From an uncultured Candidatus Saccharibacteria bacterium (GTDB lineage Bacteria; Patescibacteriota; Minisyncoccia; 2-02-FULL-40-12; GWA2-44-9), in the NCBI GenBank assembly GCA_964491455.1, contig CAZBFM010000001.1, forward strand, positions 345,893-409,892: DNA of 64,000 bases, read 5' to 3'. A program made the translations under genes and the position numbers. How positions within the stretch are numbered: the stretch's first letter is position 1; each line of letters opens with the position of its first letter. Below, in pieces: positions 7,760-55,818 of the stretch. The notes under the pieces were generated by a model. That model was not told the origin of the DNA. It was given only the letters and a program-made list of their open reading frames with translations, and ran no database searches.

Positions 7760-8589
7760 AGCACGTTGATCGATGAGAATTGAAGAATATCAGATTCTTT
7801 CAAAACCTCACACTTTCGATCGATGTTTTTTAGGGTATAGCCGATTCCTACGAGACGATGCATCAATGCCGCGCCAGAGGAACCAAACACTTGCTGCGCT
7901 TCATCATATATCTCGATGGTCATGCGTGGAGTACCCCGAAGTACACGTTCAGCGCCATCAATAAATAGACCTTCGGCGCCATCGATGTCACATTTAATGA
8001 AATCAACGGAAGTAATGTGATGCTTATCTACGAATTCATCGAGCAATATCATGGGCACAAGCTCTTTCGATGATGCTTGCACGAGTTCTGACGATAAATT
8101 GGCCGTACCGGCACCTGCGTCGTCGTAATACGGAACCTGCGCACGCACATTGCCCACTGCAGCTCGAGTGCACATCACATTCTCCAGCTTATTTAGGTGA
8201 AGACTCTTCTGCAGTACGCCAATAAGCTTGTCGTCCATGTCGAACGCATATACTCGTCCCCGAGGACCGACGAGATGAGCCATAAGGATCGTGTACCAAC
8301 CAAAATTTGAGCCAACATCCATGACGGTCATGCCAGGTTTTATCATCACGTGGAATAACGCGGTCATCTCCGGTTCGTAGACACCGCAGAAGAAGAGACT
8401 CCTATTGAGCGCATGAATAGTATCGATCCAAAAATAGAAACCCTGAACACGAATCGCTCCCTCGTAGCGATGTCCCAGTATCGCGAGACTGGCGTTGATG
8501 AGCATCGTCTTCCCACGAGGAACTGTACGGATTACAAATCGCATCAGGTCAAACGCGGCTCGACGCGTTGTCATCGCTAAATCATACAT
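7744..8589 (-). CDS. FkbM-family methyltransferase
   Basis: VMDVGSNFGWYTILMA motif. An ATG at 8589 lies 1 nt after the upstream stop. Confidence 0.65.
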   Translation of the reverse strand: MYDLAMTTRRAAFDLMRFVIRTVPRGKTMLINASLAILGHRYEGAIRVQGFYFWIDTIHALNRSLFFCGVYEPEMTALFHVMIKPGMTVMDVGSNFGWYTILMAHLVGPRGRVYAFDMDDKLIGVLQKSLHLNKLENVMCTRAAVGNVRAQVPYYDDAGAGTANLSSELVQASSKELVPMILLDEFVDKHHITSVDFIKCDIDGAEGLFIDGAERVLRGTPRMTIEIYDEAQQVFGSSGAALMHRLVGIGYTLKNIDRKCEVLKESDILQFSSINVLCERI

Positions 8590-22073: not shown

Positions 22074-22706
22074 TATCTAGGGTGAACCTCATCTCGCTCC
22101 ACCGTATCGCCTCCCTACTGGGGGACGAGCAATGAGAGGGGAAGAGGGTATTAAACTGCACTGCACTGCTTGCGTCACTCCGTCTTTCGACGAAGCAACT
22201 GGATCTTGTTCGAACACGCAGGCCGCACACATTGCTGTATACGGTTCCGAGTACTCCCACTTCGACCAAGGAGCATCGGACTCCTCGCTGAAATAACTAC
22301 CAAGACCCGTTCTGGTGACTACGGAAAGGGTTCTTTCGCTTCCATATTCGGTCATGCAACATTTGCAACAGTATGATCTTGCTTATCCTTTGTTTTCAAC
22401 GTTCTTTCCTGGGCTGTCCATCTTTGGGGCCACTAGCCACAAAGATCGAAAGCTCAAGCACCAAAATCAAGCCAAAATGGCTTTTTTGATGACCTGTCAA
22501 GGGTTTGAAGGGTACTTTTACCGCGGCTATACGCAGTGGGAGCGGTGACCTCTAGGATAGCAGATAGGCAAGAAAAGTCAATACTTTCCTCACCAACTGC
22601 GAACCACTGCCCGACTCAGAAACCGTGGTAACAAAATCATTATAGCGAAACTCCGAAAGCCAACAATAGCATTTTTGTGGATAAACCAAGTTAATTTCCA
22701 CTACTT

Positions 22707-25270: not shown

Positions 25271-25494
25271 GGGGAGAGTAGGGAGTTGGCAAATTCGTAC
25301 CAACCACTAGAACCTCCGCTAACATCGCATCTAGTACGAAGCGTAAACGTACAGCGCCAGGGCCCGCAACGAAACAATGCGCGGCACCTTCGCGAAACAA
25401 TCAGCTCATCCCCCTACCTCTCAAAAAGTTATCCACAGGTTATCAACGTTTACCTATGTACGCGAAACGTCGATATGTCGCAAAATCACGATGG

Positions 25495-35201: not shown

Positions 35202-36182
35202 TTATTTCGATTCAAAATGTGATGCGATGTAGGATTGCGCTTCTGACATCTTCAGCGATGTCGAGCCATTGCCAGTACGAATATAGAGCTCTTCACGCTC
35301 CTGCTCGCGCAGGTACACAGGTCGATCTGACGGCTGCACAGAGACGAGCATACACTCCTTCTCCTGATGGGTAAATGGTTGCATACGCACAAGACTCCGA
35401 TAGGATGGCCCCATCATCGATCCAACAAGATTTGAAAAGTGATTCTGGAATCCATCTGCATCGCGCCGAGGCAACGATGCGTAGTCGGCGTCGAGCCCAA
35501 TCGCCTCTCCCTGATCACCAATGCCGAGCATGAGATGTCCACCGGCTGTATTCATAAATGCTGCAACGGTTTTCAGTGCAGCCTTCTCGAGATTTTTATT
35601 GACGGATTGCGAATGCAAATCCCATCGTAGTGTACTTTTTCGCTCGAGCTGTTCGTGCTCTGGCAATGCTACGAGCGCATGCGGATCCACAGAAACGACA
35701 CCTCCTCCGTTTTTCTTTTTTTGCATGAGCTCCTCCACAAACTCTTGCGGCTCCGGCATGCTATCGAGCGACACCAGCACCTCTCCCTTGGCATTCATAA
35801 TATCAACTCTCCCGTAGTGCGTACGTCGACCCAAGAGACTCTGTCGAAATGTAATCGTAGCTATCTCATTGAGGGCCACCGCCGTGCGCGTATGCATAAT
35901 AATTCCTCGGTCATAGGTGAGCTGGTCCCGCGTGACTCGTATCACCTGTCGATGCCATGCAATAAACATGTACATGATCAAGCCAATCTCTCCAATAAAG
36001 AGAAAAACTGCCTGCGCGATGGAGAAATCGATATCGCGAATATACGGAATGGATCTCCAAATCTGCGCATAGTATGCCAGCGATGCTGCAAGCGCATACA
36101 GTGCCGCCGTAGCAAATTGCAACGCGATGAAATTACCGACAATGACGATGGGACTCTTACGATACTGAACAACATTCTTCAT
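35202..36182 (-). CDS. Membrane protein fusing a YdbS/YdbT-like bacterial PH domain with a C-terminal AlbA_2 (Schlafen-like) domain
   Basis: Two TM helices and a PH region, then TVAAFMNTAGGHLMLGIGDQGEAIGLD matching the AlbA_2 core. The ATG at 36182 is preferred because 36266 overlaps a promoter palindrome. Confidence 0.55.
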   Translation of the reverse strand: MKNVVQYRKSPIVIVGNFIALQFATAALYALAASLAYYAQIWRSIPYIRDIDFSIAQAVFLFIGEIGLIMYMFIAWHRQVIRVTRDQLTYDRGIIMHTRTAVALNEIATITFRQSLLGRRTHYGRVDIMNAKGEVLVSLDSMPEPQEFVEELMQKKKNGGGVVSVDPHALVALPEHEQLERKSTLRWDLHSQSVNKNLEKAALKTVAAFMNTAGGHLMLGIGDQGEAIGLDADYASLPRRDADGFQNHFSNLVGSMMGPSYRSLVRMQPFTHQEKECMLVSVQPSDRPVYLREQEREELYIRTGNGSTSLKMSEAQSYIASHFESK

Positions 36183-36249
36183 ACGGGTTGTATCGTAGCA
36201 TCCCCATATCGTGGAGCAATGAGGACGCTTTTTCTTATCCACAATTGAC

Positions 36250-36267
36250 GGTGTACAAACGTACACC
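36250..36267. promoter_or_regulatory. Perfect palindrome GGTGTAC-AAAC-GTACACC in the divergent promoter region; candidate LexA operator
   Basis: Read directly. It lies 13 nt upstream of the lexA ATG (36280) and about 85 nt upstream of the AlbA_2 gene start. Confidence 0.45.
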
Positions 36268-36279
36268 TACACTACGGGT

Positions 36280-36849
36280 ATGGATGAGACCTCTTCTACA
36301 AACCGCATAGCAGATTTCTTTCGTACGCATCATCGCATGCCGACATGGCGTGAGATGATGCGCATGTTCCGCTACCGCTCACCAAATGCCGTCACCAAGC
36401 TGGTCGATCGGCTCGTCGAGAGCGGTGCCCTCCAGCGCGACGCCACGGGTCGCATCTCACTCGTGAATCCATTCAACCACACGCGTGTGCTCGGCACCGT
36501 CGAAGCAGGATTTCCCTCCCCAGCAGAAGAAGAGCTCGCAGACACCATGAGCATCGATGAATGGCTCATCGGCAACAAAGAAGCCACCTTCATGCTCAAA
36601 GTGCGAGGTGAATCTATGAAGGACGCGGGTATTATGCCGGGCGACATGGTACTCGTGGAGCGCGGCCTCACTGCACGGGACGGAGACATCGTGATTGCCG
36701 AAGTAGACCACGCCTGGACAATGAAATACCTCCGTCACGTCCACGGTCGCGTCGTACTTGAGCCTGCCAACGAACGATTCAAGCCAATCTACCCCACCGA
36801 AGATTTGAGCATCGCCGCCGTTGTAAAAGCAGTCATTCGTAAATACTAA
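36280..36849 (+). CDS. lexA: LexA repressor (wHTH plus S24 peptidase)
   Basis: N-terminal wHTH, then VRGESMKDAGIMPGDMVLVER ... TMKYL, the Ser/Lys dyad region. Confidence 0.8.
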   Translation: MDETSSTNRIADFFRTHHRMPTWREMMRMFRYRSPNAVTKLVDRLVESGALQRDATGRISLVNPFNHTRVLGTVEAGFPSPAEEELADTMSIDEWLIGNKEATFMLKVRGESMKDAGIMPGDMVLVERGLTARDGDIVIAEVDHAWTMKYLRHVHGRVVLEPANERFKPIYPTEDLSIAAVVKAVIRKY

Positions 36850-36852
36850 TCC

Positions 36853-38184
36853 ATGCCACCAACACCACTCCTACGAGCGAGTTATCCTCGCGCAGTGCTT
36901 CATATTGACGGAGACGCCTTCTTTGCATCATGCGAACAGGCCCGCGATCCAGCGCTCAAAGGCAAGCCCGTCATCACCGGCCTCGAGCGTGGCATCGCAT
37001 CATCGATGAGCTACGAAGCCAAAGCACGAGGCGTTACGCGCGCGATGCCACTGCACGAAATCCGTCGTCTTATCCCTGATGCGATTATCCTCCCATCCGA
37101 CTACGAAACATATTCACTTCTTTCTCGTCGCTTGTATGAGATCGTGCGTCGTTGGACGCCTGATGTGGAAGAATACGGCATTGATGAATGTTTCGCCGAC
37201 ATCACCGGCTTACGTCGACTTCACCATGCAACATACCCGCAGATTGCCAGTCGCATTCAAGAGGCACTCCGCACTGAATTAGGGTTCACCTTTTCCGTTG
37301 GTCTCGCCCCCACCAAAGTGCTTGCAAAATTAGGATCAAAATGGAAAAAGCCCCATGGCTTCACCGCAATTGCGGGACATCAGATACACACTTACCTCGA
37401 AAAGCTTCCCGTGGCGTCCGTGTGGGGCATTGGAGCGCAAACCACGGCAATGCTTCAGCACTTCAACATCACCACCGCTCTTGAATATGCTCGCATGCCA
37501 CTCGAATGGGTATTCGCTCACACCCACAAGCCCCTCCAAGAAATCTGGCAGGAGCTCAATGGCGTGTCAGTCCTCGGTCTTACTACGGCCGCAAAAACAA
37601 CCCAAGCATCCATACAAAAATTCAAAACATTCACGCCACCATCTGTCGACAGATCGTTTATCATCGCGCAACTATCACGCAATATTGAAAATGCATGCAT
37701 CAAAGCGCGACGCTACAATCTTGTCACACGAGACCTTCTCTTCATTCTTCGCACGCAGCAATTCCAGCACTCAGCTGTTGAGGTGCGCCTCGCACAACCT
37801 ACATCTCTCCCTGGCCCCATGATCGCGGCAGCTCTCAAGGCACTCCCCCAGCTTCTGCATCCTGGAGTTCCCTATCGTGCCACGGGAGTTGTGCTTACAA
37901 ATATGACCAGTGAAGCCCAAGAACAACCCGACCTCTTCGGCGCAAGTATCGAGGTAGAGCGACTTCGACGCGTCTTTGAAAGTACGGATGCGCTAGATGA
38001 AAAATACGGCAAACACGCCGTCTATGTCGCCTCCAGCCACCTCGCAGCTACCCATGCACAACACGACGGTCAGCGCGGCCATGTACCTCAACGAAAAACG
38101 GATCTCCTACGTGGCGAGACAGCACGACAACGCTTGAGCATCCCCATGCTCATGGGGCGAGAGCTGAGCGATCAATCGATATAA
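36853..38184 (+). CDS. dinB: Y-family translesion DNA polymerase (DinB/UmuC-like)
   Basis: HIDGDAFFASCEQARDPALKGKPV with the catalytic D-x-D and E. Co-operonic with lexA. Confidence 0.8.
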   Translation: MPPTPLLRASYPRAVLHIDGDAFFASCEQARDPALKGKPVITGLERGIASSMSYEAKARGVTRAMPLHEIRRLIPDAIILPSDYETYSLLSRRLYEIVRRWTPDVEEYGIDECFADITGLRRLHHATYPQIASRIQEALRTELGFTFSVGLAPTKVLAKLGSKWKKPHGFTAIAGHQIHTYLEKLPVASVWGIGAQTTAMLQHFNITTALEYARMPLEWVFAHTHKPLQEIWQELNGVSVLGLTTAAKTTQASIQKFKTFTPPSVDRSFIIAQLSRNIENACIKARRYNLVTRDLLFILRTQQFQHSAVEVRLAQPTSLPGPMIAAALKALPQLLHPGVPYRATGVVLTNMTSEAQEQPDLFGASIEVERLRRVFESTDALDEKYGKHAVYVASSHLAATHAQHDGQRGHVPQRKTDLLRGETARQRLSIPMLMGRELSDQSI

Positions 38185-40979: not shown

Positions 40980-41564
40980 ATGATTAGCTACATCGAAGGA
41001 ACAGTTGAATATATCGGCGATAAACAGGCAATTATCTCGGCAGGAGGCATTGGGTACACCATTACACTAGCGCCTAAAATACTAGCCACTTTATCAGAAA
41101 ATCAAGAAAAAGTCAAGGTTTTCGTGTTCTCAAAGCTCAACATGCGCGAGGGTACATTTGATATGTACGGATTCACCAAAACGGACGATATGGCTCTCTT
41201 TCGCATCCTCACATCGGTATCCGGATTAGGACCTAAGACAGCCATGCAGATACTCAGCACAGTAGAGCCTCGCCACCTCAAAGAGGCAGTACTCTCTGAA
41301 AATCCCGAAGCGCTTCGAACCATTTCGGGATTGGGAACGAAAACCGCACAACGACTTGTCGTGGAACTCCAAGGGAAACTCGACTACATCGATTCCACTG
41401 GCTCAGACTTGGGTGCACTCGACGGAGAGTCCCAAGCATATGAGGCGCTTGTATCTCTTGGCTACACGCAACATCAAGCAAAAGAAGCCCTCAAGGCAGT
41501 CAAAGATGCAGCAAGCATTTCCGATCGTGTTCGCAAGGCGTTGCAGTATCTTGCAAAGAAATGA
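40980..41564 (+). CDS. ruvA: Holliday junction branch-migration protein RuvA
   Basis: MISYIEGTVEYIGDKQAIISAGGIGYTITLAP ... HhH motifs (GLGPKTA, GLGTKTA). Start at the ATG at 40980, downstream of the TTG shown in the track. Confidence 0.85.
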   Translation: MISYIEGTVEYIGDKQAIISAGGIGYTITLAPKILATLSENQEKVKVFVFSKLNMREGTFDMYGFTKTDDMALFRILTSVSGLGPKTAMQILSTVEPRHLKEAVLSENPEALRTISGLGTKTAQRLVVELQGKLDYIDSTGSDLGALDGESQAYEALVSLGYTQHQAKEALKAVKDAASISDRVRKALQYLAKK

Positions 41565-54337: not shown

Positions 54338-54553
54338 CTAGCTCGCGTCCTCTGCGGCAAGTGCTTTCTTGAGCTCCACGAACTCATTTTCAGCCTCTTT
54401 CAGTCGACCCCTCAAATCGCCAATAAGCGCAGCTCCTTCCCGTACTTTTTTCAGTCCCTCCTCCACATCAACCTCGGTTTGACCATCAAACCACGAGAGC
54501 AATTCTTCGAGAGCCTTCAGTGAAGCGCTGATTGATTCTTTTTTTGTTGGCAT
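54338..54553 (-). CDS. xseB: Exodeoxyribonuclease VII small subunit
   Basis: About 70-aa helical protein (SLKALEELLSWFDGQTEVDVEEGLKKVREGAALIGDLRGRL) directly downstream of xseA. Confidence 0.7.
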   Translation of the reverse strand: MPTKKESISASLKALEELLSWFDGQTEVDVEEGLKKVREGAALIGDLRGRLKEAENEFVELKKALAAEDAS

Positions 54554-54603
54554 TGTACTAGTGTATAGAATTGATACGCATAAATCGAGACCTCATACCG
54601 CCG

Positions 54604-55818
54604 TCATTCTCCGGAAACAACCTCCTGTACGCTCGCCCGCACCACGCCATCGGAAATACGAATGGCAAGATCATCACCAGATGCAACGGTAGAGATACTT
54701 CGCAGCACATTTCCATGGGGCCCTGTAACAATGCTGTACCCGAGGCGAAGTTGGCGCTCGGGATTCACCGCTGTCAGCGTTCGCTCGGCACTGGTCACCA
54801 GTTGCGCAATCCGATCAATCGATTGACGAACCTTGACCATCGCCGCACGCATTCGATCATGCAAGCGCACGCCTGCAGTCATGACGCGCTGGAGATAGCC
54901 ATCCAGACGATGCCATGCGGAATCAACGAGAGCTCGTTGTGATCGAAGAATGCGGTCCATACGATACACGAGCTCATCTGCATTTCCAGACAACGACTGT
55001 AACCGATCCCAGGTAGCATTCATCAACACTGCGGTTGCAGTTGGCGTACTCGCCGAAGCATCAGCCGCCATTTGCGCCAACGGCACATCTCGATCGTGTC
55101 CGATGGAGACCACCGTGGGGATATGAGACGCAAACACCGCTCGCACCACTCCTTCATTATTGAACGCTTGAAGATCCTCCATCGATCCGCCGCCCCGGAT
55201 AAGCACAATCACATCGAGCGACTTCGCCCCACTATTCATCTCTTCGATTGCAGCGGTAACTTGCGCGACTGCAGCAGCGCCTTCAACACGAACATCGCGA
55301 TGATACACCGTGAACCCAATGCGAGCCAGATTTTTACGAAAATCATCGATCACCGCTCCTGTCTTGCTTGTGATCAATCCAATGCTGGAAATAAATTCGG
55401 GAAGCGGACGCTTTCGTGTAAAGAGCCCCTCATTTGCAAGCTTCACCTTCAACGCCTCATACGCCTTCTTGAGCGTCCCTTCACCTACAAATTCTAGTGA
55501 TTCAACTCGGAACGAAAATCTTCCCTTGGCTTTATAGATTGACGGCACTCCGCCCACCTTCACATGCATCCCATCTTCGATAGCAACACCAAGTCCGCGA
55601 TATGCAAATGGACTCATGTAGCAGTCCATCACACCGCCACCTTCTGCGTCCTTGAGTGAGAAGTACATTCCCGTGGGGTGCGGTCGCGCACTCACGACTT
55701 CACCCTGTACACTAAAACTCTGCTGCCCCACTAATTCGTTGATAAAATCAAGAAATTCGCCAACCGAAAAGACGGGATGCACGTCCGGCGTTTGGTCAAA
55801 AAGTGATTTCTGGCTCAT
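54604..55818 (-). CDS. xseA: Exodeoxyribonuclease VII large subunit
   Basis: N-terminal OB fold (FSVGEFLDFINELV ... VQGEVVS ... MYFSLKD) followed by the catalytic domain. Confidence 0.85.
   Translation of the reverse strand: MSQKSLFDQTPDVHPVFSVGEFLDFINELVGQQSFSVQGEVVSARPHPTGMYFSLKDAEGGGVMDCYMSPFAYRGLGVAIEDGMHVKVGGVPSIYKAKGRFSFRVESLEFVGEGTLKKAYEALKVKLANEGLFTRKRPLPEFISSIGLITSKTGAVIDDFRKNLARIGFTVYHRDVRVEGAAAVAQVTAAIEEMNSGAKSLDVIVLIRGGGSMEDLQAFNNEGVVRAVFASHIPTVVSIGHDRDVPLAQMAADASASTPTATAVLMNATWDRLQSLSGNADELVYRMDRILRSQRALVDSAWHRLDGYLQRVMTAGVRLHDRMRAAMVKVRQSIDRIAQLVTSAERTLTAVNPERQLRLGYSIVTGPHGNVLRSISTVASGDDLAIRISDGVVRASVQEVVSGE

Follow-up and report, generated by a model that had tools for sequence, protein, structure and literature searches.

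What is the role of a perfect inverted repeat that lies directly in front of a lexA gene, and can it be assigned to the repressor that this gene encodes? The question is raised by a 64,000-nucleotide stretch of DNA from an uncultured bacterium, which will be called the window throughout. Positions 36250-36267 hold exactly the letters GGTGTACAAACGTACACC, a candidate LexA operator (SOS box) of the form GGTGTAC-AAAC-GTACACC that is not assigned to either strand; it is a perfect 7-4-7 dyad whose 7-bp arms are fully complementary and whose spacer is 4 nt long, and the sequence around it reads TTATCCACAATTGACGGTGTACAAACGTACACCTACACTACGGGTATG. The earlier note on this DNA had described GGTGTAC-N4-GTACACC as an 18-bp palindrome with perfect 7-bp arms, had placed it about 13 nt before the lexA start, and had called it the sole copy in the window. 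These points hold as they were made. There are 12 nt between the end of the palindrome and the lexA ATG at 36280, the A of which is the 13th base after the palindrome, and no further copy is encountered in the 64-kb window even when up to three mismatches are allowed over the 14 arm bases.

The same note held that the dyad overlaps the lexA promoter, and this too is borne out. A consensus scan finds a sigma-70-like promoter on the plus strand, with the -35 hexamer TTGACG at 36245-36250 and the -10 hexamer TACACT at 36268-36273, separated by a 17-nt spacer. The first base of the candidate operator is the last base of the -35 hexamer and the -10 hexamer begins directly after the operator, such that the dyad occupies the whole 17-18-bp gap between the two elements. 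In the promoter matrix of the family, TTGACA lies at positions -6 to -1 relative to the box and TAtAnT at box positions 19-24. A dyad of about 14-20 bp that overlaps the promoter of lexA itself is one of the features by which a LexA operator can be recognized, and it is present here.

The spacing also has a consequence for how the mRNA might begin. Only about 6-7 nt lie between the -10 element and the lexA ATG, and because the hexamer ends 6 nt before this codon, transcription is predicted to start at or next to its A, which probably yields a leaderless lexA-polymerase mRNA in the window. No Shine-Dalgarno sequence fits between the -10 element and the lexA start codon in the window. Among 136 non-redundant loci, the box ends no more than 16 nt before the start codon in 65, with a mode of 12-13 nt, and this suggests that leaderless lexA mRNAs are common in the group, at about half of the related loci.

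Certain properties of the palindrome do not carry the case for an operator. The window holds 14 perfect 7-4-7 palindromes compared to 4.4 +/- 2.5 in dinucleotide shuffles, and many or most of them are GC-rich, terminator-like hairpins. Matches to a relaxed core, TGTAC-N4-GTACA with up to two mismatches, occur at chance level (16 in the window versus 16.2 expected). Similarly, the stem folds as single-stranded DNA with an ordinary energy of -6.1 kcal/mol (z = -1.5). With 14 such palindromes in the window and an ordinary fold, the proposal that the palindrome is significant in itself was rejected. Because the 7-4-7 palindromes, the relaxed core and the fold are all unremarkable, any significance must come from the position of the element and from its conservation across species.

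The gene behind the promoter, lexA (36280-36849, plus strand), encodes a protein of 189 aa with a winged helix-turn-helix (HTH) at its N terminus and a self-cleaving S24 domain. Its product matches Pfam Peptidase_S24 (1e-24), falls just short of the threshold for LexA_DNA_bind (22.3 against a cut-off of 23.7), and passes the NCBIfam lexA equivalog TIGR00498 with 121.7 bits (cut-off 110.95). When the protein is aligned by HMMER to the E. coli LexA structures 7b5g, 3jso and 1jhh, its residues A76-G77, S112 and K149 fall on the E. coli cleavage site A84-G85, S119 and K156, and all of these residues are invariant in 26 homologues. The recognition helix reads R33-S-P-N-A-V-T-K40. Thus, the locus encodes a cognate repressor that has both the LexA-type winged HTH and the S24 apparatus with its Ala-Gly, Ser and Lys residues. 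The closest homologues are found in MAGs labelled Candidatus Paceibacterota or Patescibacteria, and the exact protein is also present in Logan assemblies.

The second gene of the operon, at 36853-38184 on the plus strand, begins 3 nt after the lexA stop codon and encodes a Y-family (DinB-like) translesion polymerase of 443 aa with Pfam IMS and IMS_C domains; its best NCBIfam matches are DNA polymerase IV (DinB-type) models, all under their cut-offs. In 146 of 155 assessable loci, lexA is followed downstream by a homologue of this polymerase, usually right next to it or overlapping it. The S24 C-terminal domain of the window protein scores 65.1 bits against UmuD' (1umu) and 61.7 bits against the LexA C-terminal domain (1jhe), and the protein also passes the NCBIfam UmuD model PRK10276 (113.4 bits, cut-off 110). 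In combination with the almost obligatory coupling to a Y-family polymerase, the UmuD' scores prompt the idea that the cleaved C-terminal fragment of LexA could serve as a UmuD'-like partner.

The conservation of the box was assessed using 80 lexA loci fetched from genome assemblies and 80 from metagenomes, along with nine clade loci recovered by exact-protein look-up, mostly from Patescibacteria. A scan of metagenomes with the single protein gave few close members of the window clade (L081 and L082 only), and the clade promoters were obtained via the exact-protein look-ups. In 157 of the 170 fetched loci, the -35/-10 spacer of the lexA promoter is taken up by a dyad of the same geometry, flanked in the family by TTGAC(A) and TAnAnT. 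When 136 non-redundant promoters are aligned, the resulting matrix reads TTGACA / GGTGAAC nnnn GTTCACy / TAtAnT. Several arm bases in this matrix are near-invariant (G4 in 130 of 136 sites, A6 in 133, C7 in 135, G12 in all 136 and T13 in 134), and the spacer positions 8-11 are free. The family operator would on this basis be a Cheo-box-like GAAC-N4-GTTC with GGT/ACC flanks, set into the -35/-10 spacer.

Within this family, the window belongs to a clade whose LexA proteins are 76-97% identical and carry the helix RS[P/L]NAVTK (window, L001, L002, L081, L161, L162, L164, L167). GGTGTAC-N4-GTACACC is found in all eight non-redundant loci of the clade (LexA at least 75% identical), where it encloses six different spacers (AAAC, AGAT, AGGT, ACCT, GCAT and ATTT) and is surrounded by divergent flanks. 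Half-sites are thus conserved around a free spacer at orthologous lexA promoters, which is another recognized mark of a LexA operator. The sister clade (L003, L004, L168, L169), with LexA proteins 64-70% identical and the helix RSTNAVAK, has GGTGAAC or AGTGAAC-N4-GTTCACC instead. Since the whole window clade has GTAC whereas the sister clade and the family have GAAC, the window box is a derived variant of the family operator, in which the third core base of both half-sites has changed symmetrically from A to T.

Two further observations came from the collection of loci. Near-identical lexA-polymerase cassettes, including the promoter and operator, recur in L006, L010, L018, L022, L024, L028, L040, L048, L049, L079 and others, and records carrying this L006-type cassette are labelled Riflebacteria, Thermodesulfobacteriota, Gammaproteobacteria, Nitrospirae, Armatimonadetes, Actinomycetes and even Bathyarchaeia; these oddly labelled cassettes reflect either mislabelled or misbinned Patescibacteria contigs, or horizontal transfer. 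Also, some loci have 200-300 nt between the box and the lexA gene downstream of it, and this gap holds a conserved ORF of about 65-75 aa, which occurs at L155 (1498-1704) as well as in L016, L021, L039, L042, L043, L051, L055, L070 and L135 and is absent from the window. It follows the pattern MSKxQ..RAI..EI..LN..ID.KII.G..Y..EA.RHK.L..QL... and mostly ends in a hydrophobic C-terminal tail. This ORF is the predicted extra first gene of a LexA-controlled operon, and one guess for its product is a division inhibitor or another small membrane protein induced in the SOS response.

If the encoded LexA reads the dyad, changes in the operator can be expected to go along with changes in the recognition helix. 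The window residues S34-P-N-A-V-T39-K40 align by HMMER with S39-P-N-A-A-E44-E45 of E. coli LexA, in which S39, N41, A42, E44 and E45 of helix III contact DNA (PMC3091678). Across the family, proteins with Lys or Arg as residue 40 are paired with [G/A]GT-GAAC arms. When residue 40 is Tyr or Trp, the arms are TTA/ATA/ATT-G[A/T]AC instead of GGT-GAAC, as seen in all 12 helix types of this kind, and when residue 39 is Thr or Val, at least one arm is GTAC in 10 of 11 helix types. Additional pairs of helix and arm are SKG[S/T]T[H/Y]K with GGCGTAC, SRTAARK with GGTGTCC, SQNAADK with GGTGGAC, and SKDSAYK with AACGAAC. The change to GTAC in the window clade coincides with a change of helix from RSTNAVAK to RSPNAVTK, although the GTAC state as such arises in few independent lineages (the window clade, L053/L156, and the distinct GGCGTAC and ATTGTAC types).

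A metagenome contig of 8.6 kb (L155) provides a particularly instructive case, as it carries two lexA paralogues, at 1297-2446 and 7837-8436, with the helices FKSKNAVYKLV and YKTKSAVHYAM. The K40-type lexA lies behind TTGCAA-GGTGAACACCCGTTCACC-TATAAT, with a box of the type GGTGAAC-N4-GTTCACC, and the Y40-type lexA lies behind TTGACA-TTAGAACGACCGTTCTAA-TATACT, with a box of the type TTAGAAC-N4-GTTCTAA. Each box is thus of the type that is paired with the helix of its own paralogue across the family, and the two look like orthogonal pairs of LexA and operator within a single genome. Both the family-wide covariation and the two L155 pairs are expected if the encoded LexA reads the dyad and are hard to explain otherwise. 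There are exceptions: in L160 a T39 protein is still paired with GAAC, and in L029, L102 and L135 an ordinary helix goes with a hybrid GTAC/GAAC site. These exceptions, along with the W in the cyanobacterial consensus, suggest that the third core base may be only weakly read by LexA. The series of operators GGTGAAC, GGTGTAC, TTAGAAC, GGCGTAC, GGTGTCC and GGTGGAC, each matched with its helix, might yield a recognition code for LexA residues 39 and 40.

The location of the box in the lexA promoter, the conservation of its arms, the covariation of these arms with the recognition helix, the operon structure and the intact catalytic residues are all shown by the sequences. Because arm changes follow the helix, and because a polymerase gene that is separated from lexA in one relative (L052) carries a box of its own, the palindrome is very probably the autoregulatory operator of the lexA gene that it precedes. 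The reading of the palindrome as an SOS box by the earlier note is thereby strengthened, with a footprint in 157 of 170 loci, identical arms throughout the clade and covariation with the helix all pointing to LexA. For the mode of action, we infer binding, repression by occlusion, dependence on RecA and a leaderless start. A LexA dimer would place one winged-HTH recognition helix on each GGTGTAC half-site, and its presence on the -35/-10 spacer would exclude RNA polymerase from a probably leaderless, bicistronic transcript that encodes LexA and the Y-family polymerase. Upon DNA damage, RecA would stimulate self-cleavage at Ala76-Gly77 by the Ser112/Lys149 dyad, which would free the operator, so that the polymerase and fresh repressor are both induced.

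Some other explanations for the palindrome must be weighed against this one. The gene divergent from lexA (35202-36182, minus strand) encodes a 326-aa protein with bPH_2 and Schlafen/AlbA_2 domains, and the dyad might be the operator of another factor, for example this product, that overlaps the lexA promoter by accident. The divergent intergenic region is 97 nt long, the box lies 68 nt from the ATG of the bPH_2/AlbA_2 gene (36182), and this neighbor keeps its place beside lexA (synteny) in both the window clade and its sister clade; yet the genes upstream are unrelated in most of the 157 loci with a box, and among loci with a DnaA-like box (34 of them, drawn from the 136 non-redundant loci) an AlbA_2 gene is present within 600 nt in only 9. 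Furthermore, the arms follow the LexA helix and both L155 paralogues have a matching box, which makes assignment to another factor very unlikely. It is a separate matter that the LexA box could possibly co-regulate the bPH_2/AlbA_2 gene from its position 68 nt away; the promoter scan found no minus-strand promoter for this gene.

Even less probable is a role for the inverted repeat as a nucleic-acid structure, be it a DNA cruciform or, at the RNA level, a hairpin, attenuator or terminator. The arms pair perfectly into a stem of 7 bp closed by a 4-nt loop, which would suit such a role, and most of the excess 7-4-7 palindromes in the window are hairpin-like, but the dyad lies upstream of the predicted -10 element and is probably untranscribed, no run of T residues follows it, no gene ends there, its fold is ordinary, and no Rfam family matches anywhere in the window. 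Also, many relatives have arm departures that are uncompensated, such as GGTGAAC...GTTTACT, or GGTGAAC/AGTAAAC in more than 20 loci, which argues for degenerate half-sites that are read by a protein rather than for a hairpin. Finally, the palindrome could be a chance occurrence without function, given that perfect 7-4-7 palindromes are common in the window and relaxed matches occur at chance frequency. This last explanation is effectively refuted by arms that stay invariant in eight diverged clade promoters with differing spacers and flanks, and by the conservation of position throughout the family.

With the palindrome read as a LexA operator, the next question is how many genes it serves. 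The earlier note had expected this operator to define the regulon of the lineage, and had considered that absence of the motif from the promoters of other DNA-damage genes would count against it. The translesion polymerase would be covered by the lexA box as the second gene of the operon. In L052, where the polymerase gene is remote from lexA, a separate box precedes it by 42 nt and matches the arms of that locus without mismatch; uvrB of this locus runs divergently from lexA, and the two share the box region. No box is found at uvrB, ruvA or xseA/xseB in the window or the window clade, and the only recA in the fetched DNA, that of L041, likewise has none; the recA gene of the window organism lies outside the window. 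When the 1.6 Mb of DNA flanking the 136 non-redundant loci are searched with locus-specific arms, allowing up to two mismatches, 8 extra sites emerge versus 6 for a control with permuted arms. Thus, the expectation stands for the shared promoter of lexA and the polymerase, whereas neither the window nor the roughly 1.6 Mb of flanks from related loci gave a second box, and the absence from other DNA-damage promoters is indeed what is seen at the few such genes that are visible. These data so far point to a minimal SOS module that consists of the repressor and one error-prone polymerase.

Two sites in the window were rejected as additional boxes. The best relaxed match, TGTACTAGTGTATA at 54554-54567 by a small xseB-like ORF, has 5 mismatches over the 14 arm positions and is attributed to chance. 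This ORF (54341-54553, minus strand) encodes 70 aa, matches TIGR01280 below its cut-off and follows xseA (54604-55818); TATACACTAGTACA stands directly before its ATG and forms a weak GTAC-N4-GTAT dyad. The other site, GGTACACCATTACA at 41053, owes its conservation to its location within the coding sequence of ruvA.

So narrow a set of boxes leads to a refinement of the operator reading, in which the protein is a dedicated autoregulator of a cassette made of an S24 peptidase and a Y-family polymerase, with the palindrome as the one site that it targets genome-wide. A precedent is UmuDAb of Acinetobacter, a UmuD homologue in a genus without LexA, which is a self-cleaving S24 protein extended at its N terminus by a DNA-binding part and which acts via a palindrome to repress genes for error-prone polymerases. 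The conserved pairing of lexA and polymerase, the near-complete confinement of boxes to the lexA promoter in the 1.6 Mb of flanks, the unboxed uvrB, ruvA, xseAB and recA genes, and a C-terminal domain that scores as well for UmuD are all consistent with such a dedicated role. On the other side, the regulon search covers about 7-10% of a genome, and true regulon sites are usually degenerate and scattered; in addition, uvrB shares the lexA box in L052, the window protein, which in this differs from UmuDAb, scores above the cut-off of the LexA equivalog and aligns through its N-terminal domain with the E. coli LexA winged HTH, and sources name the protein LexA. A 2017 study of LexA in Patescibacteria, by Sanchez-Osuna, Barbe and Erill, reportedly describes a multi-operon regulon, which also counts against a single target. 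On balance, a dedicated role of this kind is conceivable but somewhat doubtful.

Whichever its reach, the LexA operator of the window can be compared with those of better-known systems, and the likeness drawn in the earlier note to the GAAC-N4-GTTC boxes of Firmicutes and to cyanobacterial GTAC half-sites is apt (PMC3091678). LexA/DinR of Gram-positive bacteria (Firmicutes and Actinobacteria) recognizes the Cheo box, CGAACN4GTTCG or GAAC-N4-GTTC, as in the B. subtilis consensus (PMC3091678). Both systems have 4-bp cores placed 4 nt apart, a palindromic site for a dimer and overlap with the lexA promoter, but the window has GTAC rather than GAAC, with T as the third core base in both half-sites, and its conserved outer GGT...ACC extends each half-site to 7 bp. 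The family consensus GGTGAAC-N4-GTTCACC fits the Cheo box, and some Patescibacteria lineages have AACGAAC-N4-GTTCGTT or TTAGAAC-N4-GTTCTAA. Judged strictly, the sister clade and most of the family have a Cheo box, whereas the window site has the right spacing and a core that is off by one base per half-site, which would make it a Cheo-box derivative and not a strict member.

The cyanobacterial LexA box is given as RGTACNNNDGTWCB or AGTACWNWTGTACT (Mazon 2004; Li 2010, PMC3091678). Its GTAC-N4-GTAC core and spacing are identical to those of the window, and its W allows either A or T as the third base of the core. The window sequence TGTACAAACGTACA fits RGTACNNNDGTWCB at 12 of 14 positions, with misfits at position 1 (T, not R) and position 14 (A, not B), such that the outer flanks are opposite, T...A in the window versus A/G...T/B in cyanobacteria. 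The two LexA proteins also belong to different lineages, and the window organism is a Paceibacterota bacterium and not a cyanobacterium. Since the sister clade has GAAC, the GTAC state of the window is a parallel change inside a GAAC-type Patescibacteria family, and does not reflect shared ancestry with cyanobacteria. Overall, the window box is an ordinary, lineage-specific version of a known operator class.

An association of lexA with a polymerase has also been encountered elsewhere. In Geobacter sulfurreducens, the lexA-dinB operons that Jara et al. described in 2003 are said to include an autoregulated LexA that is co-transcribed with a DinB-type polymerase, with recA outside LexA control. 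The pairing of lexA with a DinB-type polymerase is as in the window, whereas the phylum differs. The operator of G. sulfurreducens, GGTT-N10-AACC, is also different from that of the window (PMC8565304). The same source mentions UmuDAb, and treats plasticity of the LexA motif and divergence after duplication as established themes (PMC8565304). The comparative study of LexA motifs in Patescibacteria (Sanchez-Osuna, Barbe & Erill 2017, Environ Microbiol 19:3465), which both PMC8565304 and PMC7739468 refer to, concerns the same superphylum and repressor family; as far as its listing by a citing paper indicates, it is among the cases of evolution of a direct-repeat LexA motif, and no such motif is seen in the window. 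A literature search for GTAC-N4-GTAC with LexA and for CPR with LexA, the reach of which did not extend to the 2017 study, returned nothing relevant.

The lexA promoter of the window has one more element that might bear on its control. DnaA boxes are 9-mers of the form TTATNCACA that are recognized by domain IV of DnaA and recur at functionally related sites, and an exact match to this consensus, TTATCCACA, is located at 36235-36243 on the plus strand, 1 nt upstream of the -35 hexamer. There are three exact copies in the window versus about 0.5 expected, the others being at 22676-22684 (minus strand) and 25429-25437 (plus strand). A further, near-consensus box, TTATCCACAGGTTATCAACG, comes after the copy at 25429, and the two are found in synteny in L002. 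The copy on the minus strand opens a gene-free stretch of 630 nt (22074-22706, minus strand) that lies upstream of a 1065-aa ORF without a Pfam match; a good TATAAT occurs about 30 nt downstream of the copy, and the stretch has no Rfam match.

Among the 136 non-redundant loci, 17 have an exact TTATCCACA within 60 nt upstream of the LexA box, compared to 0.19% of background windows (an enrichment of about 65-fold), and 39 have a DnaA-like box with at most one mismatch in that same stretch, compared to 1.8% of the background. From the opposite perspective, the 1.6 Mb hold 48 exact copies, and 20 of these are no more than 80 nt away from a lexA box. The loci with TTATCCACA include L001-L004, L015, L016, L038, L042, L043, L051, L055, L065, L135 and L161-L169. 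Positions cluster at -14/-15 and -23/-24, which are 9 bp or one helical turn apart, and the elements mostly have the same orientation; TTATCCACA is 0-2 nt upstream of the -35 hexamer in the window clade and the sister clade, and about 9 bp further upstream in distant Patescibacteria. The element is independent of the AlbA_2 neighbor, as 25 of 34 loci that carry it lack that gene. It is therefore possible that TTATCCACA provides a second regulatory input at the lexA promoter. The broader proposal, that many Patescibacteria promoters for lexA and the polymerase integrate LexA at the spacer dyad with DnaA at TTATCCACA to exert joint control over a leaderless, self-contained SOS module, is speculative and we regard it as rather unlikely. 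If this dual-input proposal were true, the status of replication and the signals from RecA and single-stranded DNA would jointly control a minimal SOS module, and a functional DnaA-like element would tie the control of replication to translesion synthesis.

The change in LexA specificity is a long-discussed feature of the evolution of the SOS response, and the covariation of the operator with two helix residues, together with a contig that carries two pairs of repressor and box, amounts to a natural data set on how such a change takes place. Moreover, with the operator fixed for one Paceibacterota lineage, the SOS regulon of these uncultured, small-genome bacteria would become predictable from sequence.
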